64,000 bases of DNA from a virus (taxonomy: Duplodnaviria; Heunggongvirae; Uroviricota; Caudoviricetes). The notes beneath the pieces are model-generated. The model was not told the origin of the DNA. It saw only the letters and a list, made by a program, of their open reading frames with translations, and made no database searches. The first letter of the stretch is position 1. Every line of letters starts with the position of its first letter. Below, in pieces: positions 1,691-45,899 of this stretch. The position numbers were made by a program, and so were the translations under genes. Where the stretch lies: IMG/VR virus record IMGVR_UViG_3300029998_000021; one strand, written 5' to 3'.

Positions 1691-2065
1691 TTAAATATTA
1701 TGCAATCCTTTACCTTCATTTGAGTGACTTAAACTTATCATTCTTGGTGAGTCTTGGTTATTTTTCTTTTGATAAATCACATTTAAACCACCAGCAATGC
1801 CTCTTTTACAAATTTCAGAAAAATATGGAAATGCTGATGAATATTTCTTCTCATTAAATAAGGCCCAATTTTGTAGCATCATCAGTATACCGTTTTGCAT
1901 ACAATCATATTTATCATCTGATGTTTTATATTTTCTTTCAAACTTTTTTATCATCTCTTCACCTATTTTAATAATCATTTTTTCCGCATTTTTAGTTAGT
2001 TTACCGCGTCCTTTTGAAATTAGCACCTCATAGTAGAAATCCGTGTCGTTTATGTATCTCGCCAT
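1691..2065 (-). CDS. gp55-like late-transcription sigma factor (short)
   Basis: LFNEKKYSSAFPYFSEICKRGIAGG resembles T4 gp55 [22 protein letters not shown] region; N-term YYEVLISKG ~ YNYVNNKEL. Confidence 0.45.
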   Translation of the reverse strand: MARYINDTDFYYEVLISKGRGKLTKNAEKMIIKIGEEMIKKFERKYKTSDDKYDCMQNGILMMLQNWALFNEKKYSSAFPYFSEICKRGIAGGLNVIYQKKNNQDSPRMISLSHSNEGKGLHNI

Positions 2066-2139
2066 ATATTATGTTATTTTTTGAGTCTTTATTCTAAAAT
2101 GCCTTAAATATATGATATTGCCTTGAAATTTAATATGTT

Positions 2140-3612: not shown

Positions 3613-3700
3613 TTACAGTTTTTTTTATTTTTTTGTTCTTTTATGAGTTTATATATAAACAAAAAAATCTCATTTTTTGTCAAAATGAGATTTTTTTATC
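3613..3700. other. two strong hairpins (AACTGTATCTTACAGTT; 12-bp AAATCTCATTTT/AAAATGAGATTT) likely within IS left end
   Basis: Perfect inverted repeats each followed by T-runs, located between the tnpB start and the 30-nt end motif. Confidence 0.4.
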
Positions 3701-3708
3701 GAAATAGA

Positions 3709-3738
3709 AAAATATGACTTTATTTTATTTATATATAC
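3709..3738 (-). repeat. 30-nt motif TATATATAAATAAAATAAAGTCATATTTTT (copy 1, minus orientation)
   Basis: Identical 30-mer also at 21828-21857 and 30437-30466, degenerate copy at 12570-12595; always just upstream of and opposite to a nuclease gene. Confidence 0.7.
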
Positions 3739-3764
3739 TTATACAAGAAAAAACAATAGTATAA

Positions 3765-5018
3765 GTGAAAGTAATTAAATATACATATAAATTTAGATTA
3801 AAACCAACAAATGACCAGAAAATTCTTTTAAATAAGCATTTTGGTTCTGTTAGATGGACTTATAATTATTTTTTAAACCAACGAAAAGAAGAATACCTTA
3901 ATAATAAAAAATCAATAACCTACAATAAACAATCAGAATATCTAACACAATTAAAGAAAAATGAAGAAACCGAATGGCTAAAAGAAATAAACAGTCAAAC
4001 ATTACAATACTCTCTTAAATGTTTAGATACTGCTTATTCAGGGTTTTTTGCTGGAAGATCAAAACTTCCAAAATTTAAATCAAGGAAAAATAGAAATTCA
4101 TTTACTGTACCGCAATTCGTGTCTGTAAATAAAAATAAATTATTTATACCAAAATTTAGAGAAATGGGTATAGAAATAATAATGAATAGAAAAATTAAAG
4201 GAACAATTAAACATTGTTCTATATCAAAAACTTCTACTGGAAAATATTTTGTATCAATTTTAACAGAGCAAGAACATCAACCAACAACAAAATCAAATCA
4301 ATCAGCAGGAATAGATTTAGGAATAAAAGACTTTTTAGTATTATCTAATGGAACGAAAATCAAGAACCATAGATTTTTAAAACACTACGAAAGGACGTTA
4401 GCACTAAATCAAAAACATCTATCAAAGAAGACTAAAGGATCAAATCGTTATGAAAAACAAAGATTAAAAGTTGCTAAAATTCATGAAAAAATAACAAACT
4501 CAAGAATGGATTTAATTCATAAAACAACTAATAATCTAATTCGTAATTTTGATGTTATTTATCTGGAAGATTTAAATATTAAAGGAATGAGCAAAAGATG
4601 TAAGTCAAAACAAGATAAAAATGGTAAATATTTACCCAATAATCAATCAGCAAAATCAGGATTGAATAAATCCATTTTAGATGTTAGTTGGGGTAAATTT
4701 ATTGAGGTTCTAGAATATAAAGCCTCTTGGAATGATAAGCAAGTCATTCATATAAATAGATTTTTTCCATCTTCTAAGGCTTGTTCTAAGTGTGGTTGTA
4801 TTAATAATAATCTAGCACTTAAAGATAGAACTTGGATTTGTCCTAAATGTGGTTCAGTTCATGATAGAGATGTGAATGCAGCAATAAATATCCTTAACGA
4901 AGGATATCGTAAAAATATATCAGATGGAACGTCTGATTACGAGCGTGGAGCAAAAATAAGACCAATTTCGGTTGGCACAAGCAATGAAACGTTTAAAGAG
5001 AAGGAACTTGTTTCCTGA
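3765..5018 (+). CDS. tnpB: TnpB (IS605 OrfB-type RNA-guided nuclease), GTG start
   Basis: RuvC motifs AGIDLGIKDF, IYLEDLNIKGM, RDVNAAINI; Zn finger CSKCGC...CPKCG; N-term KFRLKPTNDQ. Confidence 0.9.
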   Translation: MKVIKYTYKFRLKPTNDQKILLNKHFGSVRWTYNYFLNQRKEEYLNNKKSITYNKQSEYLTQLKKNEETEWLKEINSQTLQYSLKCLDTAYSGFFAGRSKLPKFKSRKNRNSFTVPQFVSVNKNKLFIPKFREMGIEIIMNRKIKGTIKHCSISKTSTGKYFVSILTEQEHQPTTKSNQSAGIDLGIKDFLVLSNGTKIKNHRFLKHYERTLALNQKHLSKKTKGSNRYEKQRLKVAKIHEKITNSRMDLIHKTTNNLIRNFDVIYLEDLNIKGMSKRCKSKQDKNGKYLPNNQSAKSGLNKSILDVSWGKFIEVLEYKASWNDKQVIHINRFFPSSKACSKCGCINNNLALKDRTWICPKCGSVHDRDVNAAINILNEGYRKNISDGTSDYERGAKIRPISVGTSNETFKEKELVS

Positions 5019-5921: not shown

Positions 5922-6262
5922 AAATTATATTTATTTATTGCATTTTTTAATAAAAATTCTTTTTTCTCTTGTGGCGTTGCCATTCTAATATTATCGTGTA
6001 ATATATCTATATGATAAGAATTATTATATTCAATAAAATTATTTTCAAGTTTATCTGGAATAGTATTATATTTAAGAGTATAGTAAGCATATTTAACATC
6101 TTCAATTTCGCCAACCGTATTATTTAAAAAACCTTTTAAATCATTTAAATTAAAATTTGCTCCTGTTATAAATCCAACAACTAAATCACCAACATCTGGT
6201 TTTTTAATTAATAATCTATTATCTCTTTTAGAAAATCTTTCAAATGTTTTTATCTTTTTCAT
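5918..6262 (-). CDS. MKKIKTFERF/KYNL family member
   Basis: as above. Confidence 0.6.
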   Translation of the reverse strand: MKKIKTFERFSKRDNRLLIKKPDVGDLVVGFITGANFNLNDLKGFLNNTVGEIEDVKYAYYTLKYNTIPDKLENNFIEYNNSYHIDILHDNIRMATPQEKKEFLLKNAINKYNL

Positions 6263-6531
6263 AAATTATATTTATTTATAGATATCTCCGTATCTGATGT
6301 AAACACTTCTTCATTCCAGGACCCTAGATTTTGTTTTGTATTAGGGTCTAAAATATTTAGATAATTGGCTTGAGAATCTTTATATATTTTATTTATAATA
6401 TATGGTTTTTTGTATTGTGGAATTGGTATATTATCTGTTTTTCTTAAATCTTTTCTAATGCAAATTACAATATCACCTTTTTTATATTTTGATTTTGATT
6501 CAAATAACTTTATATATTTCATAAATTTCAC
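6259..6531 (-). CDS. family member (MKFMKYIKLFES...KYNL)
   Basis: as above. Confidence 0.55.
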   Translation of the reverse strand: MKFMKYIKLFESKSKYKKGDIVICIRKDLRKTDNIPIPQYKKPYIINKIYKDSQANYLNILDPNTKQNLGSWNEEVFTSDTEISINKYNL

Positions 6532-7364
6532 TCCATATTATTTATTTCATTCTGTCTCTTATCTTCTCCCTCTGTCATTATCTTTTCTTTATTAGATTGA
6601 TCACCAAAATTATGATACCAGTAAACTCTTTTTAATACTCCAGCAGAACTTGGCAGAACTCCATCTGGTTTAGGCACACCAAGATAACTCCAATCAATAG
6701 TATTATCATTATCACAAATCTCAAAATCATCACTCATAACATCAAAAACTGGATAATAAGTATTAACTTCTAATGAAAATTTCATTGTTATTATATTATC
6801 AGAAGTCATGTTTATTTCTCTTGGAATTTCTACACCACTATCAGATGGCAATTTAAATTGTGCATCAATTTTTATTCCAAAATAACTAATATAAAAAAAT
6901 CTATAATTAAATAGAACATCCAAAATTTTAGTATAACAAATATCTGCTTCCCATTCATTATCTAATCTAATTTGAATATCATATGCTAATGTAACTGGAA
7001 CCGCCTTTGTCCTACTTACTATAACTTTAAATTCATCATTTATTTTAGTTTCTTTTGCTAAATATGTATTTGGGTTAGCAAATTCATCATCTTTTTGAGA
7101 ACCACCTTTAAATGTGACTACACCTCTTTGCTTTTGATCAGTATTCAATTCCACTCTGTTACCAACAATATCATCAACAAATGCGTCTAACATAAATCTT
7201 TCTTGTCCAGCATATGAAGTGTAAAAAGGAAGTAAAACTCTTATTTTTTTACCATCACTCCAACGATTTATCCATCTCACTTTAGTTCCTAAAACTTTAC
7301 ATAATGCTATTGTCGTCATTCTAACAAAATTATCATCATAATTGTATTCTTCATTTATGTGCAT
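6528..7364 (-). CDS. hypothetical protein (possibly virion structural; late promoter upstream)
   Basis: 278-aa ORF; TATAAATA on coding strand 17 nt upstream. Confidence 0.45.
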   Translation of the reverse strand: MHINEEYNYDDNFVRMTTIALCKVLGTKVRWINRWSDGKKIRVLLPFYTSYAGQERFMLDAFVDDIVGNRVELNTDQKQRGVVTFKGGSQKDDEFANPNTYLAKETKINDEFKVIVSRTKAVPVTLAYDIQIRLDNEWEADICYTKILDVLFNYRFFYISYFGIKIDAQFKLPSDSGVEIPREINMTSDNIITMKFSLEVNTYYPVFDVMSDDFEICDNDNTIDWSYLGVPKPDGVLPSSAGVLKRVYWYHNFGDQSNKEKIMTEGEDKRQNEINNME

Positions 7365-18835: not shown

Positions 18836-19660
18836 TTAATTGCTCAACGAATCAGCAAAATCATCATTTTCTTTATCAATATTATCATAATAACCTTCTT
18901 TATCAGAGTCAGGAACAACTTCAATTTCTATTGGATCAGGTCTAACATCTTCTGCTCCAGTTTGTTCATCAAATTTATTAACTTTTTTAATCAAATTATC
19001 AAAATCAGCAATTAAAAATTTTTCCATTATTTCTCTATATCTCCTATAAAGAAGTTCTTCAATATTAAAATCTCTTTCTTCCATATAAATATGTGAATCT
19101 GATTGATCTTCGTCAAAGACCTCAATAGGAAAGCCAGTTTCGTTATTATAAAATGGAGTTGCTTTTACTACAACACCATCAGCCTCATCAATAAATTTAA
19201 AAATACCTTCAGATGGTTCATAATCAAATTCAAATTCACCAATTTTTTTATCTTCAAACAATTTTTTAGAAAAATAACTAAGAACGCTTGCTTTATATTG
19301 ATTTTCTACTCTAGAATCTTGAATTTTTTCAACTAAAACAAATTCAGATCCAACTTTAAATTTTTTGAGATTATCAATTTGCTCATTTAACCATTTCATA
19401 TCGAAATTTCTATAAACATTTTGTTTAACTTTTTCTAATGTTAAAATTCTTTCTTTAATTCTAACATCATCAATTAAACCCTTAATTTTTTCAACCAATT
19501 CCTCTTTACCAAAAATATCAATATCAGAATTTATCTTTTTTTCATTTGTTATTTTAAGAGCAATAGAATTGTCTATTAAAGAATAAATTTCATTTCTAAG
19601 AGAATCTTTCATTTCATATTTTGGCTTAACCTCATGTTCTAATGTACTAAATTTTTTCAT
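18836..19660 (-). CDS. hypothetical acidic protein
   Basis: 274-aa ORF; late-promoter box 17 nt upstream. Confidence 0.45.
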   Translation of the reverse strand: MKKFSTLEHEVKPKYEMKDSLRNEIYSLIDNSIALKITNEKKINSDIDIFGKEELVEKIKGLIDDVRIKERILTLEKVKQNVYRNFDMKWLNEQIDNLKKFKVGSEFVLVEKIQDSRVENQYKASVLSYFSKKLFEDKKIGEFEFDYEPSEGIFKFIDEADGVVVKATPFYNNETGFPIEVFDEDQSDSHIYMEERDFNIEELLYRRYREIMEKFLIADFDNLIKKVNKFDEQTGAEDVRPDPIEIEVVPDSDKEGYYDNIDKENDDFADSLSN

Positions 19661-19675
19661 ATTTTTATTTTATTT

Positions 19676-19951
19676 TTATTTATAAGTATAACCTGATCTA
19701 TCATTCCAAACAAGCCCAGATAATTGCAAATAAGTTACATTGCTCATTTCTATTGCTGGATATGTATTTGCTAATGTTGTTCCTGATGTATAAGGGTATT
19801 CATATTTCAAAACACCAGCAACTACACTTTTTCTTTTAATTGACCAAAATGCATCTGTATCCTGTGTACCGGCAGTTGCATAACCATAATATGTTGTTCC
19901 TGATGAAGAATCTCCATCAAAAGGATCTATTCTTTGAAGTTCTAATGCCAT
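19676..19951 (-). CDS. hypothetical protein
   Basis: 91-aa ORF. Confidence 0.4.
   Translation of the reverse strand: MALELQRIDPFDGDSSSGTTYYGYATAGTQDTDAFWSIKRKSVVAGVLKYEYPYTSGTTLANTYPAIEMSNVTYLQLSGLVWNDRSGYTYK
19677..19684 (-). promoter_or_regulatory. TATAAATA late-promoter box
   Basis: Plus TATTTATA; 17 nt upstream of ATG 19660. Confidence 0.3.
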
Positions 19952-20015
19952 AATTTTATTTTTATTTTATCTTATATATAAATTTTTTAAACTCATATTT
20001 AAAATAAAATTACAT

Positions 20016-20050
20016 AAAAAAAAGTTGATATTTACAATATCAACTTTTTT
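20016..20050. terminator. terminator hairpin AAGTTGATA-TTTACAA-TATCAACTT with A/T runs
   Basis: Directly 3' of the tmRNA gene on the minus strand. Confidence 0.55.
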
Positions 20051-20057
20051 AATAGCG

Positions 20058-20424
20058 TGGAACCGGCGGGATTCAAACCCGCGTCCAAAATAGTCTTTCG
20101 GCATCTTCTACAAGTTTAGTTTCATTTTTCTAAATAAAACAAAAATAAATAATTTTTATTTAGGTAATTATTAAATCCTATAACATTTTTATATCAGTAT
20201 AAAATAGTTTACTAAAAAAACTAGTCTGGTTTTCTTGTTTAGGCTACAGAAACTTCATTCTCAACGACAGATCCAACAACTGAAATTGTTGATTTAGAAG
20301 AAACTACGTGCGTATGTACATTGCCATTTATTGTTTGTATCCATTAATTTATTAATCGCTTATTAGATTATGCGATACTTGCTGATAACCTCATTTCACA
20401 ATCCTGTCAAATTCAGTCGATCCC
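20058..20424 (-). ncRNA. ssrA: tmRNA (ssrA), about 367 nt, CCA not encoded
   Basis: 5' GGGAUCGACUGAAUUUGACAGGAUUGUGAAAUGAGG parallels E. coli GGGGCUGAUUCUGGAUUCGACGGGAUUUGCGAAACCC; 3' GGACGCGGGUUUGAAUCCCGCCGGUUCCA versus E. coli GGACGCGGGUUCAACUCCCGCCAGCUCCA; 7-bp acceptor pairing GGGAUCG/CGGUUCC. Confidence 0.75.
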
Positions 20425-20557
20425 ATATTTTCAATGAACATTAATATTACAAAAATTATATTTGATCTGATATACTGCAACCATTAATCTCAAAATGTCC
20501 ATCAGATATTTTTCTTTATATTGAGGTCAGTAATATTAATAAAGTATATAGTAATGT

Positions 20558-21805
20558 TTATTTATGAAGTTTTACTATTTTAAAAGCTTTTTCTAAAATA
20601 GTAATTTCGTCAAAAAGATTATACTTTTTAACAACTCTTGATAAATCAAGAGGCTCGTTCATAGAAGCAATGTGATTTCCAAACCATCTGTTCAATATGT
20701 TTATAGCTGAATTTAAATCACGATCTATAATTATGGTGTCTGATAACTGAACTTTCCGATCTTCCAATTTGATCTTATTATCAAATAATTTTCCAGTTAA
20801 ACAGTTAATTTGTGTTGTCCATTTTTCATCAATTTTTTCTAAGTTTATATTTTTTGCTTGACACTTATAACCAAGAAATTGTAAAAACATTGTAATGTTT
20901 GATTTATGAAATGATTTACGAATTCCTTTTTTATTTTCATTTACTCCTTCTGTAGACATCAATCGTTTAACCGTCAGGTCACCAATTACAATTGTGTTGT
21001 AATTCATATTCACTAATTTTTTGCTTTGAATATGTAAAGCTTGTTTTACTTGTTCGTTCTTCTTATGATAACATTTATTCAATACGTTATTTAACAATAG
21101 ATTCCTATTTGATCCTTTGATAGTTTTACTTCTTTTTTTTTGTATTTTAGCAATTTGTTTTTGATAATAATCATTAATTTTTTTAGATTTATTTTTTAAT
21201 ACTATCATTTCACCATTATTATCAACACCCGTTGCCAATTTTGTTAAGCCTAAATCAATTGCAAGAATTCTGGTTTTAATATTTAAATCATTCTTATATT
21301 CTATTTTATCATCAATAACTAAATCACATAACCATTTATTCCTAATAAATTTAATTCTTATTTCCTTAATATTTAATGATTTTATATCTATTTTTGATTT
21401 ATATTCAAATGGAATTTGATTTATAAAAAATCTATTTTTCTTTATCATCCAACCAGATTGATTAAAAGATATAGTATGAAAATTATTATCCTCTATTTTT
21501 CTTGGCGGTCTAGCATTTTTATCTTTTTTGATTAAATTAAAGAATGATCTATAAGAACCATATAATTCTGTTGCTATAGTTTGTATTGCCTTTGAATTTA
21601 ATTTTTTCCAATCTGTACATTCTTCCTTTAACTGAGGAAGTAAATTATGTAAATCAAAATTATTAAATATAGTTTTGGTTGTATTGTATTTTTCTGTTTG
21701 AATATCAATCAATTTATTCCATATATCTTTACGAATATCAGACAATTTTTGTAATTCAAAAATTTGGTCTTTTTCTGGAAATAATCTTATTTGATATGTT
21801 TTCAT
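20558..21805 (-). CDS. tnpB: TnpB-like nuclease with degenerate zinc finger
   Basis: N-term QIRLFPEKDQ, RuvC motifs AIDLGLTK, VIGDLTVKRL, DRDLNSAINI; CxxC pairs absent (INCLTGK only). Confidence 0.7.
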   Translation of the reverse strand: MKTYQIRLFPEKDQIFELQKLSDIRKDIWNKLIDIQTEKYNTTKTIFNNFDLHNLLPQLKEECTDWKKLNSKAIQTIATELYGSYRSFFNLIKKDKNARPPRKIEDNNFHTISFNQSGWMIKKNRFFINQIPFEYKSKIDIKSLNIKEIRIKFIRNKWLCDLVIDDKIEYKNDLNIKTRILAIDLGLTKLATGVDNNGEMIVLKNKSKKINDYYQKQIAKIQKKRSKTIKGSNRNLLLNNVLNKCYHKKNEQVKQALHIQSKKLVNMNYNTIVIGDLTVKRLMSTEGVNENKKGIRKSFHKSNITMFLQFLGYKCQAKNINLEKIDEKWTTQINCLTGKLFDNKIKLEDRKVQLSDTIIIDRDLNSAINILNRWFGNHIASMNEPLDLSRVVKKYNLFDEITILEKAFKIVKLHK

Positions 21806-21827
21806 TACTATTTTTAGTTTATAACAC

Positions 21828-21857
21828 TATATATAAATAAAATAAAGTCATATTTTT
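21828..21857 (+). repeat. 30-nt motif copy 2
   Basis: Identical to 3709-3738 (reverse complement) and 30437-30466; 23 nt upstream of tnpB-like ATG. Confidence 0.7.
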
Positions 21858-21994
21858 ATATTTCCATAAAAATATCCAAAAAATTAATTTATTGAATTTT
21901 ATTCATTTTTAACTTTATTCAAAATTTCTTTTAATTTTATACATCTATAATTTCTTGAATTTTATTCATTTATAACTATTTCCTATTTTAGATT

Positions 21995-22450
21995 TCATTT
22001 CTTTAAATATAATATAGAATTTTCATAATCTATTATAGCATTTCTAGATAATAAATAATCAGAGCCAATTAATCCAGCAACAACAAAATTATCTTTTTTA
22101 AAATATGGATTTAATTCTTCTAAATCAATACCAAGAAATGGTATATGTAATTCTTTTATATTATAGTCAAATATTATATAAATATTTTGCAAGCCACCAA
22201 TACCAACATATCTTTCTATTGGTTGATTAATATAAGAAAAATTATATTTTTTATATTTATTTATATCTAAAAATGATTTACTAGAACCACTATCAATCAA
22301 AAATAAAGTTGATTTATCATTTAGAGTCAATTTAATAAATAATATATTATTTTGCCTTATTATATTATATTTATCATATTGTGCATAAAAGTTTTTAGAA
22401 CTTACGCAACCAAATAACAACAATACTAATATAATAATAATTTTTTTCAT
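21995..22450 (-). CDS. lipoprotein with retropepsin-like aspartic protease domain
   Basis: Lipobox LLFGC; LFLIDSGSSKSFLD (D-S-G-S active-site-like), GIGG flap-like motif. Confidence 0.45.
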   Translation of the reverse strand: MKKIIIILVLLLFGCVSSKNFYAQYDKYNIIRQNNILFIKLTLNDKSTLFLIDSGSSKSFLDINKYKKYNFSYINQPIERYVGIGGLQNIYIIFDYNIKELHIPFLGIDLEELNPYFKKDNFVVAGLIGSDYLLSRNAIIDYENSILYLKK

Positions 22451-22452
22451 TT

Positions 22453-22824
22453 TTATTCATCAACTCTTGACATTATATCTTTTTCTATTTCTTCTTGTGT
22501 AATATTAGGATATTTCTCCTTTATTGCCAAATATAATCTATCTTTATCATTTTTTAAAGCTTCTATTTTATCATAATATGGTCTAACTATATCTTGTATA
22601 ATTTTAATTTCTTTTTCCAGAACAATCAACTTATTATTAAGCTCTAATGTTTTTCTAATTTCATTTAAATCTGATTTAACTGTTGTCTCCATATCATCTT
22701 TGATTTTTTCAAATATTTTCTTTCTCTCAAAAATAAATGGTTCCTGTTTTAAGATTTCTTTCAAATTTTGAATATAAATCTTTCTTATTCTTACTCCTTC
22801 ATTAATATATTGTTCGGCTATCAT
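22453..22824 (-). CDS. hypothetical coiled-coil protein
   Basis: 123-aa ORF. Confidence 0.4.
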   Translation of the reverse strand: MIAEQYINEGVRIRKIYIQNLKEILKQEPFIFERKKIFEKIKDDMETTVKSDLNEIRKTLELNNKLIVLEKEIKIIQDIVRPYYDKIEALKNDKDRLYLAIKEKYPNITQEEIEKDIMSRVDE

Positions 22825-23189
22825 CCTTCGATTTCTTTTTTTCTTTTTTCAATCATATATTGAATATATTCTTCTTCACCCATTTTATTAATTTTAATAT
22901 CCTCTTCTGATAATGGCATCACATTATGATCACTTTCATATTTAGCCTTATACCAATCATCCATATTAAAATCAATATCTTCAATCTTCTCATTTAAACC
23001 ATATTCATCATATTTAGAAACTAAATATCCAACATCGTAAGGAACGCCAGAAGGTCCTGAAAAATAATCAATTAAAAAGCTAGAAATATCAGAGTAATCA
23101 TCAGATTCTATTGCTCTATCAATATAATAATCAGACAAATATCCAGCCATCTTTGTTATCTTCATTTCATATTCTCTATATTTTCCCAT
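22821..23189 (-). CDS. hypothetical acidic protein
   Basis: 122-aa ORF. Confidence 0.4.
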   Translation of the reverse strand: MGKYREYEMKITKMAGYLSDYYIDRAIESDDYSDISSFLIDYFSGPSGVPYDVGYLVSKYDEYGLNEKIEDIDFNMDDWYKAKYESDHNVMPLSEEDIKINKMGEEEYIQYMIEKRKKEIEG

Positions 23190-23998
23190 TATTCTTCTTC
23201 TTTTTTTTCTTCTTCAACACCCAATTCTTTATTTATTATTCTTTTAAGTTGATTATAAATTTCTTCCTTGAGTTTAGAAGGGTCTTTTAATATTTTATTT
23301 GATATTAAATTTGCATAATATTCAACAGCATCAGCTTCAACATTTTCTTGAACCATTCCAATAAAAGTTGGATTTGGAATATTCTCTTCTATTTCAACAT
23401 TTAATTTTACTGGATAATTATTCTTAAACATCTTAAACATCATTTGAATTGGATCTACTACTGTAGCTGGCTTAGATTTAGGCTTAGAAGATTGTGCCTG
23501 AATTTCAAAAGGATCTTGTGAATTTTCTATTTCACCATTTAAAAGTTTGTCTTCTTCAGCGTCCCAATCTTTTTGTTCTGATGGCATTTGAGCACCTGGC
23601 ATACTTTGTCTCCATTGGGCTATCATAGCATCTTTTTCTTCTCTCGATAAATTAATTTGACCTTCCATTTGAGGTTGTTTTATAACTCCACCTGGTGGTA
23701 ATGAAGTATCAGAAAGAACAACTGGAGCTTGAACAAATTTTACACTAGCACCACCTTGATTTTCATTTACTTTACTACTATCTATATTTCTAATTTGATT
23801 GGCGATATTTAACAATGGATCAGTTGAATAATTAGTATTAAAAAATGTATTTGGATCAACTTCGGCTTGGATATCATAATTTCTTTTAAAAACATCTTTC
23901 TTAATACTAATACTATTATTTAACACATAAAAATCTGCATTTTCATTCATTATTGAAACCTGCTCACCAGTTGCTTTATTTACATAATTATTTGACAT
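23189..23998 (-). CDS. hypothetical protein
   Basis: 269-aa ORF. Confidence 0.45.
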   Translation of the reverse strand: MSNNYVNKATGEQVSIMNENADFYVLNNSISIKKDVFKRNYDIQAEVDPNTFFNTNYSTDPLLNIANQIRNIDSSKVNENQGGASVKFVQAPVVLSDTSLPPGGVIKQPQMEGQINLSREEKDAMIAQWRQSMPGAQMPSEQKDWDAEEDKLLNGEIENSQDPFEIQAQSSKPKSKPATVVDPIQMMFKMFKNNYPVKLNVEIEENIPNPTFIGMVQENVEADAVEYYANLISNKILKDPSKLKEEIYNQLKRIINKELGVEEEKKEEE

Positions 23999-24079
23999 GA
24001 CAAAATTATTATTTTTATGATATATATAATAACGTATAGGTTCTATTTAAAAAGTTTTTTAAAATTTAATATATATAAT

Positions 24080-24415
24080 ATGATAACAAAATTTGAAATA
24101 TTTGAAAGTTCTATATCAGCAAACGGGGTTGGTGGTAAATCTTATCCAGATCATAATACTCCAAAATTTAAAATTGGAGATGAAGTTATGGTTATTTATG
24201 ATTTAAAACAATTTGGATATCCATATGGTATAGTAAAAGGTGATTTAGTTAATATTATAGATTTTTGGATAAATGGCAATGGAAATATTAGTTATACAAT
24301 AGATAGTCCTAAATTACGTGAAATAAAAAAAGGTATAGATATTAGAAATGACGATTTTGATGAATTTAATTTTGAATATGAATGGAAAATAAATGCAAAT
24401 AAATATAATATATGA
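24080..24415 (+). CDS. family variant (MITKFEIFES...NANKYNI); ORF track start 24017 probably too early
   Basis: Identical N-terminus MITKFEIFE in next gene. Confidence 0.5.
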   Translation: MITKFEIFESSISANGVGGKSYPDHNTPKFKIGDEVMVIYDLKQFGYPYGIVKGDLVNIIDFWINGNGNISYTIDSPKLREIKKGIDIRNDDFDEFNFEYEWKINANKYNI

Positions 24416-24843
24416 TAACAAAATTTGAAATATTTGAAAATATTATTTTAGACACATCTGGTTCTATGAATGATTATAAACATACAAAAAATAATAAATA
24501 TAATGAATATTCTTGCAGAGATGAATATTATATTATAATAGATTCTGATATAGTAAATACTAGCACATGGTTAAAAATTGAAAAATCAGAAAAAATTAAA
24601 AATTTTATAGAAAATAATATAGGGCAAATTCACAAACATCTTAGTTGTGGTCTAACAATTTACGATATATACATAAAATATAAAAATATACCAAAAGATA
24701 TTAAATTTTATTTTGAAAATTTCAAAATTGACCTAACCAGCAATCAACGTGAAAATATAAAATATGTTGAATTTGTCTCAAAATATAAAGAAGCTTGCGA
24801 AAAATATTTAATGAATAAAATAAGTACAAAATATAATTTATAA
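24412..24843 (+). CDS. family variant (MITKFEIFEN...ISTKYNL)
   Basis: as above. Confidence 0.55.
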   Translation: MITKFEIFENIILDTSGSMNDYKHTKNNKYNEYSCRDEYYIIIDSDIVNTSTWLKIEKSEKIKNFIENNIGQIHKHLSCGLTIYDIYIKYKNIPKDIKFYFENFKIDLTSNQRENIKYVEFVSKYKEACEKYLMNKISTKYNL

Positions 24844-24860
24844 AATTTATATATAAACAA

Positions 24861-26027
24861 ATGGCAGAGTTAAGGTATACAGAGTTAAAATTCGAAGGAA
24901 AAATTTACAATGAGCAATGGAAAATTGATGAAATTCTAATTAAGAACAAATTCAATTGGATGGTTAATGCTGAAATAAAAAATGCTAGACTTGAAATTTT
25001 TGAAAACACATTAGTCTGGAATGCTGGCATTTGGTACAATGGTTCTTGGTATTTTGGTGTTTGGAGAGATGGTGAATGGAGATATGGAACATGGCAAAAT
25101 GGTGTATGGTATAATGGGGTTTGGAGAGATGGTACATTTAAATCAGGTATTATATATAAAGGTAAATTTTTTAAAGGTAAAATAGAAAGTGGAGAAATTC
25201 GTGGTGGTCAATTTATTGACGTACAAATAGATCCTAAAGTTGTCGAATATACTGATGACGAATATCAAGTAAAAAAAGAAGAAGAAAAAAAACAAACACA
25301 AGTAGCAACTGCAACTGCGGAACCTACTACTGTACCACAAACAAATGTAGTTAAAGTTCATAGTACACAACCACCATCTCAACAACCTGTTGCACAACCA
25401 AAAATACAACAAGAAAAAAAAGAATATAAAAATATGAAAAAAATAAAAACATTTGAATCTTTTTCAAATAATTCAGAATTTGTAGAATTTAAAGTTGGTG
25501 ATATTGTTAGGTTAAAAAAGTTCACTATTACCGGAAGGGACATACCCCGCATAAAAGACGAATGCTTTAGGATAGATAAGATAAATTCAAATTATGATGA
25601 TCATGGTCAAAAAAGTGAAGATAGATTAGATGGAAAATATCATTTAATTCTAATCGGAAATGAAAATGATTCTGTAACTACTTGGAAAAATAGTACAGAT
25701 ATAGAATTAGCACCAGAAATAATACAACAAATGAATAAAAAAGAATATGAAAATAAAAATATGAAAAAAATAAAAACATTCGGAAAATTTGTAGAATCCG
25801 TAGGTGAATATGAAGATAGTTTTGTTAAAGTTAATAGAGATGAAACTGAATTAGAAACATCTGATAGACCAAATTTAGGTAAACTAAAACAAAAACCTGG
25901 CAAAATAGTCATTGAAACACCTAGTAAAACAGATGCTTATAATGCAAAAATGAGATTGGGAGGAGATATTATTCAAGAACCTGGATTTTCTGACAAACAA
26001 ATCCACACAGTTAAAGACACAAAATAA
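24861..26027 (+). CDS. three-module fusion: WxxGxW (MORN-like) repeat domain, T/P/Q linker, then two family-type modules starting at in-frame MKKIKTFE (25434, 25761)
   Basis: Repeats GIWYNGSWYFGVWRDGEWRYGTWQNGVWYNGVWRDG; internal KKEYENKN-MKKIKTF junction resembles KKYNL*-MK with the stop lost. Confidence 0.5.
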   Translation: MAELRYTELKFEGKIYNEQWKIDEILIKNKFNWMVNAEIKNARLEIFENTLVWNAGIWYNGSWYFGVWRDGEWRYGTWQNGVWYNGVWRDGTFKSGIIYKGKFFKGKIESGEIRGGQFIDVQIDPKVVEYTDDEYQVKKEEEKKQTQVATATAEPTTVPQTNVVKVHSTQPPSQQPVAQPKIQQEKKEYKNMKKIKTFESFSNNSEFVEFKVGDIVRLKKFTITGRDIPRIKDECFRIDKINSNYDDHGQKSEDRLDGKYHLILIGNENDSVTTWKNSTDIELAPEIIQQMNKKEYENKNMKKIKTFGKFVESVGEYEDSFVKVNRDETELETSDRPNLGKLKQKPGKIVIETPSKTDAYNAKMRLGGDIIQEPGFSDKQIHTVKDTK

Positions 26028-26028
26028 G

Positions 26029-26580
26029 ATGAAATCTTATATTAATTTTATTAAAGAATCAGCTAATAGTCATGATGATTTTGTTAAAATTTTACAAGAC
26101 ATCATAATAAAAGACGACAAAACTATTAATGGATTTGAGTTTAATGAAGATTCCAGAAGTGGAGCATTTGAATGGTATAATGGGGATTATATTATATATT
26201 CCACACCATATTGGGACGGAAATATGGATTTACCAATTGATATAACTAATAAAAATGGAGATGAAATAGATGAACAATTTTTTGACTTGATAGAATTAAA
26301 AAACGTCAATGATGTTAATTCAATTATTAAATTTTATTATGAAAAAATAGATGAAATAACATATCAATTAAGCAAAAGAACCGAATTAAAAAAAGATTTA
26401 GAATTAATATTAAAAAGTGTCAATTCAATAAATATTGAAGGTTATTTTACTATAGGTAGACACAATAAAGTTTGGTCAAAAATATTAGATCCTCTTCTTG
26501 ATGATGATATTATTGATATATTAAATATAATAAATAAAAAATACTCAGATATTATATTAGCAAATAAATATAATATATAA
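26029..26580 (+). CDS. family-related protein (...LANKYNI)
   Basis: KYNI C-terminus. Confidence 0.45.
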   Translation: MKSYINFIKESANSHDDFVKILQDIIIKDDKTINGFEFNEDSRSGAFEWYNGDYIIYSTPYWDGNMDLPIDITNKNGDEIDEQFFDLIELKNVNDVNSIIKFYYEKIDEITYQLSKRTELKKDLELILKSVNSINIEGYFTIGRHNKVWSKILDPLLDDDIIDILNIINKKYSDIILANKYNI

Positions 26581-30436: not shown

Positions 30437-30466
30437 TATATATAAATAAAATAAAGTCATATTTTT
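30437..30466 (+). repeat. 30-nt motif copy 3 (contains TATAAATA at 30441-30448)
   Basis: Identical 30-mer; lies between divergent small RHH-like ORFs. Confidence 0.7.
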
Positions 30467-30512
30467 CCATTTTTAAATATTTTTTTGACTATAATTAAAA
30501 AAACATTTTTAT

Positions 30513-37741: not shown

Positions 37742-39127
37742 TTACGCGGTAATTGATTTATACCTTTCACTATTTATAGTTTTCAACATCAAACTAGCTG
37801 GAGTATCAATACTTCCTGATAATACAGATTTTAATATTGCTGGACTGAAACCTGAAACTAATCCTACATTCTTTGCTTTAAAGTTTGCAGGCACATTACC
37901 AAGTCTACCATTAACATTCCAGAAAACAATATCTGGCATTTTATAACCAGCAGTTGAATACATTCTCTGAATCATACTCAATGCAGTATCAGAATTATTC
38001 TGAACGCAACCATTAAATTCCATATCTGATATTATCAAAATTTTAGTTGGCATTTCACTTTCTGGAATATTGTTTTGAGTTGCTTTATTCAAAATCAACT
38101 TATATACAGATTCTAGATTAGTGCTCATACCCCATTCAGCACGTTCCAACTGTTTTAATCTTTCATACAATGATCCTTTCAAATACTGCATTTGTGGATT
38201 ACTTGAAAATGTAATAAAAGCGTCTTTAAAAATACTTTTATTCCTTTCAGAAATATACACACCCAATGCAACTGACACAGACATTGGAAGTCCTGACATA
38301 CTTCCTGATACATCGCAAACTGGAATGACTCTCTCATTCGAATCTGCCATAAAATCAGGAAGATTAATCCATTGTGCTTCAACTGCTCTCTTATCTTCAT
38401 TTCTCTTCCAAGCGTCATATAACATATGTGGAAACAAAACACCAGCTTTAATTTCTTCCTTACCTTCGTGAACCAATTCAATAAACTCATTAAAACGATT
38501 CATATCATTCTTTAAGAATGCTTTTCTATACTTATTCATAGCAACTGAAGGCACATGAGAGTAAGTAATTTCTTCCCAATCCTTTGCGCACATTTTTTGC
38601 TCTACCGTGTTTGATAACCCAACAACAAGTTGTCTGTATTCCTTTGGGGTCAATCCCATATACTTTCTAACCTTATTAGCAAAACCATCTTGTCTTGGAA
38701 GCCATTTTGCAAGCAAACCATTTTCTTTATCCAAACCTTCTTTAATCAAAGGAAGAACAAGTTTTTCATCTAACTCAAAAATATCATCCCAACGACCATA
38801 TTCTGGTACATATTTGATATTTTTTTCAAGATATGATAAATAATTTTTATTCAAAAATTTTGAGCAAACTCTAAAGAATCTTCTTTCTCCAGCTCCACCT
38901 CTTGGATCACGAGCCCAAAACATAAGTTTTAATGCCACTGTTGGATCTTCCACAATTGCTTTTTGAAAAAGCAATTCAATATCATTATCTGACATTTTCC
39001 TTGAAGCACCAGCTAAAAAGAACATATCAACATTTGAATTCAAACTAGTTGAATTTGTTACCATACCATTTGCTGTTGAAGCATCTTCTTGTCTTACAGC
39101 ATTTACCAATTTTGATTTAGATTCCAT
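37742..39127 (-). CDS. rsr: Ro60/Rsr orthologue (TROVE plus vWA domains); true start probably ATG 39127 (ORF track used TTG 39169)
   Basis: WARDPRGGAGERRFF, VLFPHMLYDAW (Ro HPFHIL-like), MIDAS VCDVSGSMSG, ILIISDMEFNG, GLVSGFSPAIL all parallel Ro60. Confidence 0.7.
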   Translation of the reverse strand: MESKSKLVNAVRQEDASTANGMVTNSTSLNSNVDMFFLAGASRKMSDNDIELLFQKAIVEDPTVALKLMFWARDPRGGAGERRFFRVCSKFLNKNYLSYLEKNIKYVPEYGRWDDIFELDEKLVLPLIKEGLDKENGLLAKWLPRQDGFANKVRKYMGLTPKEYRQLVVGLSNTVEQKMCAKDWEEITYSHVPSVAMNKYRKAFLKNDMNRFNEFIELVHEGKEEIKAGVLFPHMLYDAWKRNEDKRAVEAQWINLPDFMADSNERVIPVCDVSGSMSGLPMSVSVALGVYISERNKSIFKDAFITFSSNPQMQYLKGSLYERLKQLERAEWGMSTNLESVYKLILNKATQNNIPESEMPTKILIISDMEFNGCVQNNSDTALSMIQRMYSTAGYKMPDIVFWNVNGRLGNVPANFKAKNVGLVSGFSPAILKSVLSGSIDTPASLMLKTINSERYKSITA

Positions 39128-39159
39128 AATTATTTGTTTTGTTTTTGTTATTAAAAATA

Positions 39160-39193
39160 AAAATCCCAACTAAAATTCATTAGTTGGGATTTT
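39160..39193 (-). terminator. 13-bp hairpin AAAATCCCAACTA/TAGTTGGGATTTT followed by a U-run on the minus strand
   Basis: Would terminate a minus-strand transcript immediately upstream of rsr. Confidence 0.5.
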
Positions 39194-42865: not shown

Positions 42866-43864
42866 ATGATAGAAAATGATTTTTTATTATTTATATATAG
42901 AATAAAAAACATTATGAAAAAAATAACAACTGATCAAGCAAAAGAAAGAATATTATTAAATAATTCTAATATTATATTCCTAAGTGATTTTTTAGGCACA
43001 TATAATAAAAGTAAATTTAAATGCTTAATTTGTAACCATGAATGGACAACTACCGCAAAATATGTAATAAATGGTGATAGTGGCTGTCCTGAGTGTGGAA
43101 AGAAAAAAGCAAAAGAAACCATTAAATATAATCTAACTACTGAAGATTTTAAAAAAAAAGTGTATAAAAAATACGGAGATAATATAAATATCATTGGAAA
43201 ATATATTAATGCTATAACTAGAATAGAATCTCAATGTAACATTTGTGATCATATATGGAAACCATATGCAAAAAACTTAATAGCAGGAACAGCAGGTTGC
43301 TATAAATGTAGATGTAAAAATACAGGTGTAAAAATAAGAAAATCACCTGAAAAATTTTTAAATGAAATAAATAAAATACACAATGATAGAATATCTATAT
43401 TAGGAGAATATAAAACCTGTAATAGTAAAATGAATGTTAAATGTAATGTTTGCGGTAATTTATGGACAAGTAATACTGCAAGAGAATTATTAAGAAGAGG
43501 TTGCCCAAAATGCAATTTATCAAAAGGTGAATTATTAATATCAGATATATTAAAAAAATTAAAAATAAATTATAATGATCAACATATTATTAATGGATTA
43601 AAAACTGAAGATAATGGTACACCATCTTTTGATTTTGTGTTATATGATGAGTACAATAATGTAAAAACTATTATAGAATATGATGGTCTTCAGCATTTTA
43701 AAGCAGTAAAAAGATGGGGAGGTATTAAAAGGCTTGAAAGACAACAAAAAATAGACAAATTTAAAAATAATTATTGTGGCGAAAACAATATAAAAATGAT
43801 CAGAGTGCCATATACAGATTTAAAAAAAATAAATATTGAATACATTAAAAATTTATTAAAATAA
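42866..43864 (+). CDS. homing-endonuclease-like protein: three Zn-ribbon repeats plus C-terminal Vsr/DUF559-like PD-(D/E)XK domain
   Basis: Repeats FKCLICNHEWTTTAKYVINGDSGCPECG / CNICDHIWKPYAKNLIAGTAGCYKC / CNVCGNLWTSNTARELLRRGCPKC; C-term FDFVLYDEYNNVKTIIEYDGLQHF; paralog of 53542..54450. Confidence 0.6.
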   Translation: MIENDFLLFIYRIKNIMKKITTDQAKERILLNNSNIIFLSDFLGTYNKSKFKCLICNHEWTTTAKYVINGDSGCPECGKKKAKETIKYNLTTEDFKKKVYKKYGDNINIIGKYINAITRIESQCNICDHIWKPYAKNLIAGTAGCYKCRCKNTGVKIRKSPEKFLNEINKIHNDRISILGEYKTCNSKMNVKCNVCGNLWTSNTARELLRRGCPKCNLSKGELLISDILKKLKINYNDQHIINGLKTEDNGTPSFDFVLYDEYNNVKTIIEYDGLQHFKAVKRWGGIKRLERQQKIDKFKNNYCGENNIKMIRVPYTDLKKINIEYIKNLLK

Positions 43865-44010: not shown

Positions 44011-44115
44011 CCGTGCATATATTGTAAAAAAAATGGACTTCGGACTTGTAAAATACCGAAATGAGATCCTTTAACCCGGTCACTAACTTAAAATGTAATC
44101 TATCCATTTTTTTTG

Positions 44116-44189
44116 AGCAGAAGACGGGATTCGAACCCGCTGCCTGAAGATTGGAAATCTCCTACTCGACCTAAATGAGCTTCTTCTGC
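44116..44189 (-). tRNA. tRNA-Gly(UCC)
   Basis: Hand-folded: 7-bp acceptor GCAGAAG/CUUCUGC, D 4 bp, anticodon stem GGAGA/UCUUC with loop UUUCCAA, T-loop UUCGAAU. Confidence 0.75.
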
Positions 44190-44431
44190 AATATTTGTGC
44201 TAATTTTTTCTTTCTTATTAATTTTTTTTCATCTTGATAACAAACTCGTTCATAAAGGATATTCTTATCACTATCAAAAAGCCACCCTGTATTGAAATTA
44301 TATTGGTCGGCATCTTCAATATCATAAATTTCATAATGATGTGGATTAGAATACCCTAAATTCATATCATAAACATCTATAGTTTTTATATATTTCCCGT
44401 TTATTTTATTCTTATAAATGTACTGATTCAT
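44171..44431 (-). CDS. hypothetical small protein (3' end overlaps tRNA-Gly by 19 nt)
   Basis: 86-aa ORF. Confidence 0.3.
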   Translation of the reverse strand: MNQYIYKNKINGKYIKTIDVYDMNLGYSNPHHYEIYDIEDADQYNFNTGWLFDSDKNILYERVCYQDEKKLIRKKKLAQILQKKLI

Positions 44432-44447
44432 TGATATTGTAAGTTAG

Positions 44448-44521
44448 TGATCCTGATGAGACTCGAACTCATAACCTACAGATTAGAAATCTGTTGCTCT
44501 ATCCAATTGAGCTACAAGACC
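44448..44521 (-). tRNA. tRNA-Arg(UCU)
   Basis: GGUCUUGUAGCUCAAUUGGAUAGAGCAACAGAUUUCUAAUCUGUAGGUUAUGAGUUCGAGUCUCAUCAGGAUCA; canonical cloverleaf. Confidence 0.8.
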
Positions 44522-44526
44522 TTATG

Positions 44527-44600
44527 AGCACCCAGACGGACTCGAACCGCCAACATCCTGATTACAAGTCAGGCACTCTACCAATTAAAGCTATGGGTGC
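44527..44600 (-). tRNA. tRNA-Thr(UGU)
   Basis: Acceptor GCACCCA/UGGGUGC perfect; anticodon arm CCUGA-CUUGUAA-UCAGG; T-loop UUCGAGU. Confidence 0.8.
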
Positions 44601-45056
44601 AATAATTCTATTTCCTTTACAATGCGTGTCTAATGTTGCATTACAATTAGGACACACTATTCTTAAATTATCTAATCTATGATCATCATGAACACCATTT
44701 ATATGATCTAATATTAAACTCATTTTTTTACCTTGCCAATTTTCATCTTGACCACACAATTCACATTTTCTTTCTTTAATTCCTTCATTATATAATCTTT
44801 CTTTCAAATATGTTGTCCCAAAAGTAGAATTCTCAACCAATATTTCTAATAAACATTTTTTATTAAAATTATCCATCTTCTTATCTTTATTAATATTAAG
44901 ATGTGCAATATCTATTTCAAATAAATTAGCGTATTTTAATATAGTTCTATAATTTGCGCCTTGATGTGTTAATTCTAATTTATTAATAACCTCTATTTTT
45001 GTTGCCGAATTTTTTATTATATTTTCTAAATTTTCTTTATTCCATCTCTTATTCAT
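44562..45056 (-). CDS. HNH homing endonuclease (free-standing, in tRNA island)
   Basis: CELCGQ...HINGVHDDHRLDNLRIVCPNCN; 3' 39 nt overlap the tRNA-Thr 5' half. Confidence 0.6.
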   Translation of the reverse strand: MNKRWNKENLENIIKNSATKIEVINKLELTHQGANYRTILKYANLFEIDIAHLNINKDKKMDNFNKKCLLEILVENSTFGTTYLKERLYNEGIKERKCELCGQDENWQGKKMSLILDHINGVHDDHRLDNLRIVCPNCNATLDTHCKGNRIIAPIALIGRVPDL

Positions 45057-45079
45057 ACTTTATATATAATACTTTAATT

Positions 45080-45150
45080 AAAAAGTTTGAGCTTCTGATA
45101 GGTCTCGAACCTACATTCTCCGAGTTACGAATTCGGTATTCTACGTTGAA
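45080..45150 (-). tRNA. tRNA-like, anticodon loop UUCGUAA (CGU, Thr?) with imperfect anticodon stem
   Basis: Acceptor GCUUCUG/CAGAAGC perfect; T-arm GUAGG-UUCGAGA-CCUAU; A-C mismatch in anticodon stem. Confidence 0.4.
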
Positions 45151-45290
45151 TTACAGAAGCAAAAAATTAATTGAGGCTCATTTCGGTAACGATCCGATTT
45201 CCCTGCGATACAACGGCAGACATCATCCACTAAATGCTTAAGAGCCAAAATATTAAACTTAATCTTGTACAATAAACTTGATAGGTTTAT

Positions 45291-45365
45291 TATTCAATTG
45301 TACACTTACAGGGAGTCGAACCCTGGATCTTCTGTGTGTTGGACAGACGCTTTGAACCAACTAAG
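45291..45365 (-). tRNA. tRNA with unusual anticodon loop CCAACAC (AAC?); scaffold paralogous to tRNA-Val
   Basis: 75 nt; acceptor GCACUUA/UAAGUGU; D and T arms almost identical to neighbouring Val tRNA; no U33. Confidence 0.45.
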
Positions 45366-45368
45366 CGA

Positions 45369-45444
45369 TAAGTGCATGTGCCCCCACAAGGAGTCGAACC
45401 TTGGATCTTATGGATGTAAACCATACGCTTTAAAACCAACTAAG
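45369..45444 (-). tRNA. tRNA-Val(UAC)
   Basis: GCCCUUAUCGCUUAGUUGGUUUUAAAGCGUAUGGUUUACAUCCAUAAGAUCCAAGGUUCGACUCCUUGUGGGGGC. Confidence 0.75.
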
Positions 45445-45462
45445 CGATAAGGGCATTAAAAG

Positions 45463-45547
45463 AGCGATAGGTGGGAGTCGAACCCACGACGCGTTTTCAC
45501 TAACCTGCTTGGAGGGCAGGTACCATCGACCGCTAGGAGACTATCGC
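45463..45547 (-). tRNA. 84-nt class-II-like tRNA-like gene, anticodon loop CCUCCAA (UCC?) with 15-nt variable arm
   Basis: Acceptor GCGAUAG/CUAUCGC perfect; T-arm GUGGG-UUCGACU-CCCAC; anticodon stem ACCUGC/GCAGGU; long variable arm not expected for Gly. Confidence 0.4.
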
Positions 45548-45552
45548 AAATA

Positions 45553-45797: not shown

Positions 45798-45805
45798 TCA
45801 GAGCA

Positions 45806-45885: not shown

Positions 45886-45899
45886 TTCTTTCTCAACTA

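Follow-up and report, generated by a model that had tools for sequence, protein, structure and literature searches.

Huge bacteriophages encode transfer-messenger RNAs (tmRNAs) together with SmpB, and their tmRNAs have been detected by ARAGORN (PMC7162821). The same survey predicted Bacteroidetes hosts for genomes larger than 634 kb and described the Mahaphage clade, to which the genomes LR756501/LR756503, LR745206 and LR756504 belong (Al-Shayeb et al. 2020, PMC7162821). In a database of 97,179 tmRNA sequences, the commonest length of the peptide tag is 10 aa (PMC11915505). Here, we analyzed a tailed-virus sequence of 64,000 nucleotides (IMG/VR record IMGVR_UViG_3300029998_000021), hereafter the window, in which a tmRNA (ssrA) gene occupies positions 20058-20424. 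The gene is of a kind already known, huge-phage tmRNAs and SmpB having been published in 2020. We consider it highly likely that it serves ordinary trans-translation by a phage tmRNA, in which SmpB from the phage or the host very probably takes part, and that it appends a long phage-specific tag.

A complete tmRNA gene on the minus strand

ARAGORN reported a single tmRNA in the window (20057..20424, minus strand), with the tag open reading frame (ORF) at gene positions 100-186. The Rfam model RF00023 matched 20055..20424 on the same strand over its full length (model 1-374), with a score of 63.5 bits (E = 2e-22) for a gathering score of 47 bits. Since this score exceeds the threshold, and since the expected pseudoknots and tag layout are found and backed by covariation, the original prediction of a complete tmRNA gene in a phage is upheld. 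Its limits, 20058-20424, correspond exactly to acceptor nucleotide 1 and discriminator A73, and the strand had to be corrected to minus. The features of the gene are the following.

20058-20424, minus strand: tmRNA (ssrA) gene of the standard one-piece type, 367 nt from G1 to discriminator A73 (ARAGORN and RF00023)
20418-20424, minus strand: 5′ strand of the acceptor stem, GGGAUCG, pairing with 20059-20065 (CGGUUCC), G3.U70 included
20066-20082, minus strand: T-arm GCGGG-UUUGAAU-CCCGC, with 4 of 5 pairs compensatory and 99% of cells paired
20339-20376, minus strand: pseudoknot 1 (PK1), stems nt 49-53/66-70 and nt 57-60/83-86, directly 5′ of the resume codon
20239-20325, minus strand: tag reading frame, from GGC (20325-20323) to UAA (20241-20239), encoding GNVHTHVVSSKSTISVVGSVVENEVSVA*
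20120-20229, minus strand: tag-end closing helix (CUGG/CCAG) and pseudoknot 2-4 region, helices 7-13 of the consensus structure
20010-20050, minus strand: intrinsic terminator, a perfect 15-bp hairpin (20018-20032/20036-20050) followed by U8
20425-20439, minus strand: 15-nt leader GTTCATTGAAAATAT, abutting the mature tmRNA 5′ end

The tRNA-like domain combines the 7-bp acceptor stem, in which the G-U pair noticed at the outset is G3.U70, with discriminator A73 and the GCGGG/CCCGC T-stem. The 3′ CCA first read in the gene turned out to be C71-C72-A73; the bases that follow the discriminator A (20058) are CGC, and the CCA tail is not encoded. None of the 9 phage tRNAs called by ARAGORN encodes CCA either, so a CCA-adding enzyme would be required. 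Several tmRNAs of related phages do encode CCA.

The inverted repeat of the terminator starts 7 nt beyond the discriminator and eight U follow the stem, in agreement with the terminator initially assigned to the gene. A consensus terminator scan gave no call at the hairpin (20018-20050) because its stem holds fewer than three G-C pairs. At the same position, the relatives have other, non-homologous hairpin-plus-T-run sequences. The leader is kept in all relatives, with the consensus GTTCTTTGAAAATAT, and is a candidate core promoter or processing signal. The gene has a G+C content of 31%, within a window of ~25% G+C.

Conservation of the fold among related phages

Relatives were collected by three routes: the upstream syntenic protein P269 (window 23189-23998) used as a query against viral contigs, the 19-mer TAAACTTGTAGAAGATGCC searched in viral contigs, and a two-anchor pattern searched in metagenome contigs. 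As a tmRNA probe, the 19-mer was set aside in favor of the two-anchor pattern, most of its matches being unrelated coding sequence. A megablast of window 19000-23000 against the INPHARED phages gave no match, and relatives could be reached only with protein queries or "distant" DNA searches. In all, about 24 distinct tmRNA homologues were gathered in related phage contigs, which are designated below by L numbers. All the intron-less metagenomic copies tested (17/17) passed RF00023, with 51-92 bits. ARAGORN called 14 of 21 relatives and agreed on the resume codon in all but one.

The structure was derived from an alignment of 20 distinct intron-less sequences. RNAalifold recovered the acceptor stem, the long helix 2, one stem per pseudoknot and the T-arm, with compensatory changes at 34 of 54 pairs, and a crossing-helix scan supplied the second stems of PK1, PK3 and PK4. 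The full pseudoknotted structure comprises 66 pairs in 14 helices, 38 of these pairs being changed on both sides. Its cells are paired at 95.0%, versus 38-48% after a shift of the 3′ partners by 1-3 columns, and none of 500 shuffles attained any of five measures. The window copy forms 63 of the 66 consensus pairs.

Both stems of PK1 are 96-100% paired with covariation, PK3 shows covariation in both stems, and PK2 has a main stem with all five pairs compensatory plus an inner hairpin. The acceptor stems also covary in the family (GGGGGUG/CACCUCC, GGGUCCG/CGGAUCC, GGGGACG/CGUCUCC and others), the variation being located at positions 4-7. G3.U70 is present in all compared acceptor stems; the automatic alignment displays it in 19 of 20 rows, the exception being a one-column misalignment. 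The RNA family is selected for the canonical tmRNA fold, and the window copy is intact.

Three relatives are apparently damaged. In L038 (1066-1434, minus strand), the acceptor 3′ strand is unable to pair with the 5′ strand; in L034 (4503-4866, plus strand), the tag is frameshifted by a 1-nt deletion; in L002 (13411-13775, plus strand), the T-loop is aberrant and ARAGORN misses the gene. In L032, the abiF RNA motif RF03085 was matched at 2040-2075 (plus strand), ~25 nt downstream of the tmRNA, with 40.3 bits for a threshold of 37, which could be a terminator-like chance match.

A long and conserved tag peptide

The tag, (A)GNVHTHVVSSKSTISVVGSVVENEVSVA*, has 28 residues and ends in ...AGNVHTHVVSSKSTISVVGSVVENEVSVA, with GGC at tmRNA nt 100-102 and UAA at nt 184-186. 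The resume codon is located directly after PK1, the usual place, and not at about nt 151 as initially proposed. The stop codon had been correctly placed at 20239-20241, and the peptide reported with it (...GSVVENEVSVA*) is just the C-terminal 11 of the 28 residues.

In 15 type-A sequences, the frame is exactly 28 codons long with zero indels, whereas the pseudoknot region does have indels. Pairwise codon differences among these 15 sequences amount to 350 synonymous and 672 non-synonymous changes in the called frame, i.e. 34% synonymous, versus 12-14% in the two other frames, which contain 28 and 32 stops. By this comparison of codons, the tag frame evolves like a translated ORF. The resume-codon context AACAATAAAUGGC, in which AACAAUAAAU is followed by GGC, is invariant across the alignment; a glycine (GGC) resume codon is typical of Bacteroidota tags, e.g. 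GETNYALAA in the tmRNA database. The final residue is alanine throughout and the penultimate one V, L, M or A.

Two main tag types were distinguished. The 28-aa type follows G.AHTHIVTS.ST.SVAGTVVE.EV[SF]VA, the window having its most divergent member, and the 33-aa type, found in LR756501 and kin, follows G[DN]YK[MI]NAEDMMSIPTSLTGKVATESFVEDLVLA. Both are unusually long, given the commonest database length of 10 aa. Because the tag sequence is conserved, the peptide itself probably matters. A more speculative and rather unlikely reading is that the conserved 28- and 33-aa tags have a phage-specific role, e.g. escaping or redirecting host proteolysis, rather than being a simple degradation signal.

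The source phage and SmpB in its relatives

The window encodes a 1233-aa tail sheath (phrog_34521, E = 7e-72), a Dam methylase, a phosphoribosyl pyrophosphate (PRPP) synthetase, a lysozyme, a deoxynucleoside kinase, HSP20 and an HNH homing endonuclease. The sheath, HNH endonuclease, lysozyme and Dam methylase, with the tRNA cluster described below, confirm the phage context of the gene. The best matches of the sheath are metagenomic huge phages, LR756501/LR756503 (735,411 bp) showing 51.8% identity over 95%; LR745206 and LR756504 follow, and the Lak phages are more distant. Judging by these matches, the source phage is a Mahaphage-type huge myovirus, and the remark that viral tmRNAs come mostly from very large phages agrees with the published survey (PMC7162821).

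The tmRNA gene belongs to a conserved family backbone, P269-P122-P123-slot-tmRNA-slot-P91-P274, for whose neighbors P269, P122, P123, P91 and P274 PHROGs and Pfam indicated no function. SmpB homologues are encoded by LR756501/503 (199,506-199,925, remote from the tmRNA locus), LR745206, LR756504 and the Lak phages. In the window, tRNA genes, 9 by ARAGORN and 11 by Rfam, are clustered at 44.1-47.4 kb on the same strand as the tmRNA, and a homing-endonuclease-like gene (42866-43864) adjoins them.

44115-47353, minus strand: tRNA cluster, including 45805-45875 and 45943-46014 (ARAGORN/Rfam)

Proposed function

Ordinary trans-translation is argued for by what was observed: the gene with its terminator, a fold and a tag frame that are both under selection, the synteny, and SmpB in relatives. 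Minus-strand transcription would start from the gene's own upstream signals, the ACTATATAC box and/or the GTTCATTGAAAATAT leader, and end at the hairpin-U8 terminator. The 5′ leader would be removed as for tRNAs, the 3′ trailer trimmed and CCA added enzymatically, after which G3.U70 would direct charging with alanine. With SmpB, encoded elsewhere in the closest relatives' genomes or supplied by the host, the RNA would enter stalled ribosomes. Translation would then resume at GGC nt 100 and append (A)GNVHTHVVSSKSTISVVGSVVENEVSVA up to UAA, so that the ribosome would be freed and the truncated protein marked by the tag. In this scheme, the steps from expression and processing to charging, trans-translation and what becomes of tagged proteins are inferred from the sequence.

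Several observations weigh against this interpretation. A tblastn search with E. coli SmpB found no SmpB in the 64-kb window, so the partner is assumed. The posterior probability is low in the central part of the RF00023 alignment, no crossing stem could be established for PK2 in the 20-sequence alignment, and in PK4 one stem covaries, the second being nearly invariant. The T-loop UUUGAAU has U at the usual C56 position, as in L007 and L029, and the window tag terminates with VA, the canonical end being AA. Finally, the promoter might be impaired by an insert at 20440-20540, described below, which lies between the gene and a conserved upstream box.

A different function would be that of a decoy or inhibitor RNA, binding SmpB, alanyl-tRNA synthetase (AlaRS) or ribosomes and thereby shutting down host trans-translation. 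Such activity has been reported for the tag-less tmRNA-like gene of mycobacteriophage DS6A, a phage form devoid of coding sequence has been cited as inhibiting the endogenous tmRNA in E. coli (PMC11915505), and the window tag is atypical in length and ending. However, a decoy needs no translated conserved tag, whereas here a full tag ORF is held at 28 codons with a synonymous excess, the resume-codon context is invariant and all pseudoknots are maintained. We therefore regard a decoy as very unlikely.

The TnpB gene and the region upstream of the tmRNA

Between P123 and the tmRNA, the window carries a TnpB gene and several further features.

20558-21805, minus strand: TnpB of 415 aa, IS200/IS605 OrfB-type RNA-guided nuclease family (Pfam, phrog_506)
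20539-20596, minus strand: ancestral tmRNA-upstream box, made of a small-ORF 3′ remnant and the promoter-like ACTATATAC (20552-20544)
20440-20540, no strand assigned: insert of ~99-101 nt that separates the upstream box from the leader and whose terminal inverted repeats, ATTAATATTAC/GTAATATTAAT, are 11 bp long and perfect
21827-21863, minus strand: promoter-like motif AAAATATGACTTTATTTTATTTATATATAG upstream of TnpB, recurring upstream of other genes
21995-22450, minus strand: predicted lipoprotein of 151 aa with lipobox LFGC and a weak retropepsin-like DSGS motif

The TnpB assignment made from the sequence is confirmed by three domains above the Pfam cutoffs, PF12323 (HTH_OrfB_IS605), PF01385 (OrfB_IS605) and PF07282 (Cas12f1-like_TNB), and by a phrog_506 match (E = 7e-57). 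TnpB and the tmRNA share the same strand, and the TnpB stop codon lies upstream, 133 nt from the tmRNA 5′ end, the distance originally given. By eye, the RuvC motifs AIDLG (Asp I) and DRDLN (Asp III) can be recognized, IGDL replaces the usual EDL, and a relocated Glu is possible in DEKWTTQ. A second TnpB in the window (3765-5018, plus strand) has 417 aa and CxxC zinc-finger motifs; it shares 26% identity with the tmRNA-adjacent one and has close relatives (72-80%) in L054 and L050.

The upstream slot measures just 67-122 nt in L006, L032, L054 and L007, without TnpB. Only in the window and L002 does it contain a 151/154-aa lipoprotein gene and a TnpB, a block inserted between P123 and the tmRNA in these lineages. 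The two TnpBs are just 23% identical and are therefore different elements in the same slot. By these comparisons, TnpB entered a variable slot as a lineage-specific insertion, and most relatives lack it. The predicted lipoprotein matches Asp_protease_2 at E = 0.0023, below the Pfam cutoff; its L002 homologue is at 11545-12009 (plus strand), and only the two TnpB-bearing lineages have it in front of the tmRNA.

Eight TnpB1 relatives in other phage contigs, with 70-83% identity, match residues 1 to ~402 only. Their shared ends are an upstream motif and, on the 3′ side, a covarying hairpin followed by GTAGTTCAT; past this terminus, their flanking sequences are unrelated. As regards intact transposon ends, no left end could be defined for the window TnpB, which lacks the GTAGTTCAT terminus and continues into the tmRNA-upstream box, which overlaps its last 11 codons and stop: the last ~13 codons and the right-end terminus have been replaced by, or fused to, this box. 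The box is 88-95% identical to the tmRNA-upstream sequence of the TnpB-less L032, L038, L027 and L039. In TnpB-less relatives, the order is ...AAAATAGAAAAACTTTATAAATAAACATTACTATATAG, ~6 nt, GTTCTTTGAAAATAT, then the GGG of the tmRNA. In L027, L038 and L039, a small ORF (...KIEKLYK*) supplies the first part of the box with its 3′ end, and the window TnpB ORF reads in frame into the box (...KIVKLHK*). Either the right end is truncated and fused to the box, or it has diverged and stops at TTCAT (20564). A right boundary at 20446, suggested by comparing the window with L002, was rejected, as the TnpB-less relatives show that 20596-20539 is ancestral and 20440-20540 a separate insert.

This insert is specific to the window, absent from all relatives and present in a single copy in the window and the collected loci, with the look of a miniature inverted-repeat transposable element (MITE). 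As a structured RNA it was rejected, its fold not being significant (z = 0.28). A 37-nt match upstream of TnpB was likewise rejected as a transposon left end, being a promoter-like motif repeated before many genes. This motif, AAAATATGACTTTATTTTATTTATATATAG, is found in the window at 21827-21863, 30437-30472, 51285-51311, 55704-55738 and 19957-20020 on the minus strand and at 3689-3752 on the plus strand, and in L002 at 9892-9936 and 2498-2533. It precedes many genes, including both TnpB genes, and probably represents a phage-specific promoter class.

If the right end stops at TTCAT (20564), the guide-adjacent flank is the tmRNA promoter box, the basis of the idea that the guide RNA targets this box for homing into TnpB-less alleles; alternatively, the tmRNA could be co-transcribed with a TnpB/omega-RNA unit. 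Such a functional coupling is favored by the shared strand, the 133-nt spacing, the presence of a second, unrelated TnpB in the same slot of L002, and, with a right end at TTCAT, the 19/20 identity of the adjacent 20 nt, AAATAAACATTACTATATAC, to the L032/L038 box. We find it highly improbable, given that most relatives have no TnpB beside the tmRNA, that the window lacks the GTAGTTCAT terminus of its eight TnpB1 relatives, that the L002-type element ends at its stop codon with a flank other than the conserved tmRNA-proximal sequence, and that neither the target-adjacent motif (TAM) nor the omega-RNA is definable. That each of the two TnpB types has a guide for conserved sequence near the tmRNA was also considered and dropped, as the non-conserved flank of the L002 element gives this idea no support. 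The neighboring TnpB is a selfish insertion, unrelated to the tmRNA, in a permissive upstream slot.

That the gene is instead an ssrA copy captured from a host, or what integration at a host tmRNA left behind as an attP-type remnant, decaying in the phage, is scarcely credible: islands and prophages commonly integrate at tmRNA genes (PMC11915505) and defects do occur in L034 (tag), L038 (acceptor stem) and L002 (T-loop), but the gene is full length and not a 3′ fragment, the 3′-terminal 17-29 nt of the tmRNA exist in a single copy in the window without an att-like duplicate, scanning the flanking ORFs with Pfam and PHROGs revealed no integrase, the syntenic position is fixed in many phage lineages, structure and tag are under purifying selection, and the exact two-anchor pattern revealed no such tmRNA in 185,579 species-representative genomes. 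The sole match of this pattern, in a Bacteroidota metagenome-assembled genome, was discarded as a chance match, with neither tmRNA nor synteny there, and says nothing about the host. The classic ssrA hot-spot consists of integrase-mediated insertion at the 3′ end of bacterial ssrA, leaving a duplicated att copy. The locus had been likened to such a hot-spot, a claim that does not hold: with neither att duplicate nor integrase in the sequences scanned, and a location upstream of the promoter region, TnpB is not a classical ssrA att-site integration.

Introns and endonucleases at the tmRNA locus

In several relatives, the tmRNA is split in its T-loop by a group I intron of ~230 nt. This is the case in LR756501 (L001) and in L046/L052, with RF00028 scores of 96-98 bits (L001, L046). 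The L001 locus is the reverse complement of LR756501 712649-724763 and its intron-split tmRNA is at 6016-6630. The inserts of L035/L037/L055 and L050 are 84% identical to the L001 intron; for L035 and L050, the homology rests on this alignment, as cmscan gave no group I intron call even at E <= 0.01. Comparison with intron-less relatives placed the insertion between T-loop nucleotides 2 and 3, i.e. between UU and CGAAN. In L001, an A is aligned with the terminal G of the intron. The T-loop intron "position 3" subsite has been reported from the class Bacteroidia only (PMC11915505), and its use here fits the predicted host phylum. ARAGORN fails on every intron-containing copy, that of LR756501 included.

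A 257-aa ORF with homing-endonuclease PHROG matches is found directly downstream of the tmRNA in L001 (6723-7496, plus strand), L046, L028 and L035, at 81-94 nt from the tmRNA across homologues. HNH genes occupy the downstream position in L007 (12114-12827, minus strand), L053 and L057. The endonucleases adjoining the tmRNA belong to phrog_559, phrog_9084, phrog_7140 and PF01844, and they stand beside both intron-containing and intron-less alleles. Collaborative homing has been described for T4-like phages and cyanophages, and by analogy the combination of an ORF-less intron with a free-standing endonuclease suggests the same here. The window itself carries none of these introns and tmRNA-adjacent endonuclease genes.

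In a looser sense than the classic one, the tmRNA locus does act as a hot-spot, visited by selfish elements throughout the phage family. A bolder view, in which the locus is a battleground of selfish DNA and the window TnpB an RNA-guided homing element guided by the box at 20563-20544, appears rather unlikely. If it were true, TnpB could cut the TnpB-less alleles of co-infecting relatives, paralleling the T-loop introns and the endonucleases.

Other genes of the window

At 37742-39169 (minus strand), the window encodes a 475-aa Ro/TROVE-like protein (phrog_850 "RNA-binding protein", DUF2828 and DUF7788), of an RNA-quality-control type. Runs of small paralogous ORFs are present at 13731-17416 and 24017-26580 (plus strand), whose products start with MK(Y/I)IK.FE and end with ...KYN(L/I)*, successive ORFs overlapping by ATGA stop/start. 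Such runs also occur in L006 (7817-8308) and L007 (9426-9905 and 13143-13648). Their C-terminal KYNL appears to be imposed by the conserved translation-initiation region of the next gene. A KKYNL motif is also found close to the C-terminus of TnpB.

Significance and comparison with known systems

A phage tmRNA accompanied by SmpB suggests that huge phages handle ribosome rescue themselves during infection, and the window provides a clean, intact example of such a tmRNA. The long tags, of 28 or 33 aa, fall into two conserved types and point to a constraint at the protein level. Also of interest are the many selfish elements gathered at the locus and the under-detection of the family by ARAGORN. 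This program, the tool of the 2020 survey, misses a third of the family, including the copy in the largest known phage genome, so phage tmRNA counts are likely underestimates. The recurrent landing of TnpB, homing endonucleases and group I introns makes the locus convenient for studying competition between selfish elements of related phages.

Compared with the intron-form tmRNAs described previously (PMC11915505), the window gene has no intron, unlike its position-3 relatives, and the phage introns have no internal ORF, a free-standing endonuclease gene being located downstream instead. The TnpB element shares the set of HTH, OrfB_IS605 and Cas12f1-like TNB domains with the IS1341-like, TnpB-only elements of the IS200/IS605 family; on reading the sequence, it has neither TnpA nor zinc-finger cysteines.

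With the one-piece bacterial tmRNA (RF00023, E. coli SsrA), the window gene shares the acceptor stem with G3.U70, the T-arm, the long helix 2, PK1 before the resume codon, a tag ending in Ala followed by UAA, the stop-codon helix and three further pseudoknots. It differs by a tag of 28 aa instead of the most frequent 10, a VA rather than AA end and a CCA that is not encoded.

The closest described system is that of LR756501. There, the tmRNA escapes detection by ARAGORN, is split by a T-loop group I intron and is followed by a homing-endonuclease gene, with no TnpB upstream, and its tag has 33 aa of the other sequence type (GDYKMNAEDMMSIPTSLTGKVATESFVEDLVLA), versus 28 aa in the window. The two genes are syntenic, each lying after the homologues of P269 and P123, and their 5′ domains are homologous, with 73-74% DNA identity. 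They share the same architecture, in which a long tag starts with Gly after AACAAUAAAU and ends with a hydrophobic residue and Ala, SmpB being encoded elsewhere in the LR756501 genome.

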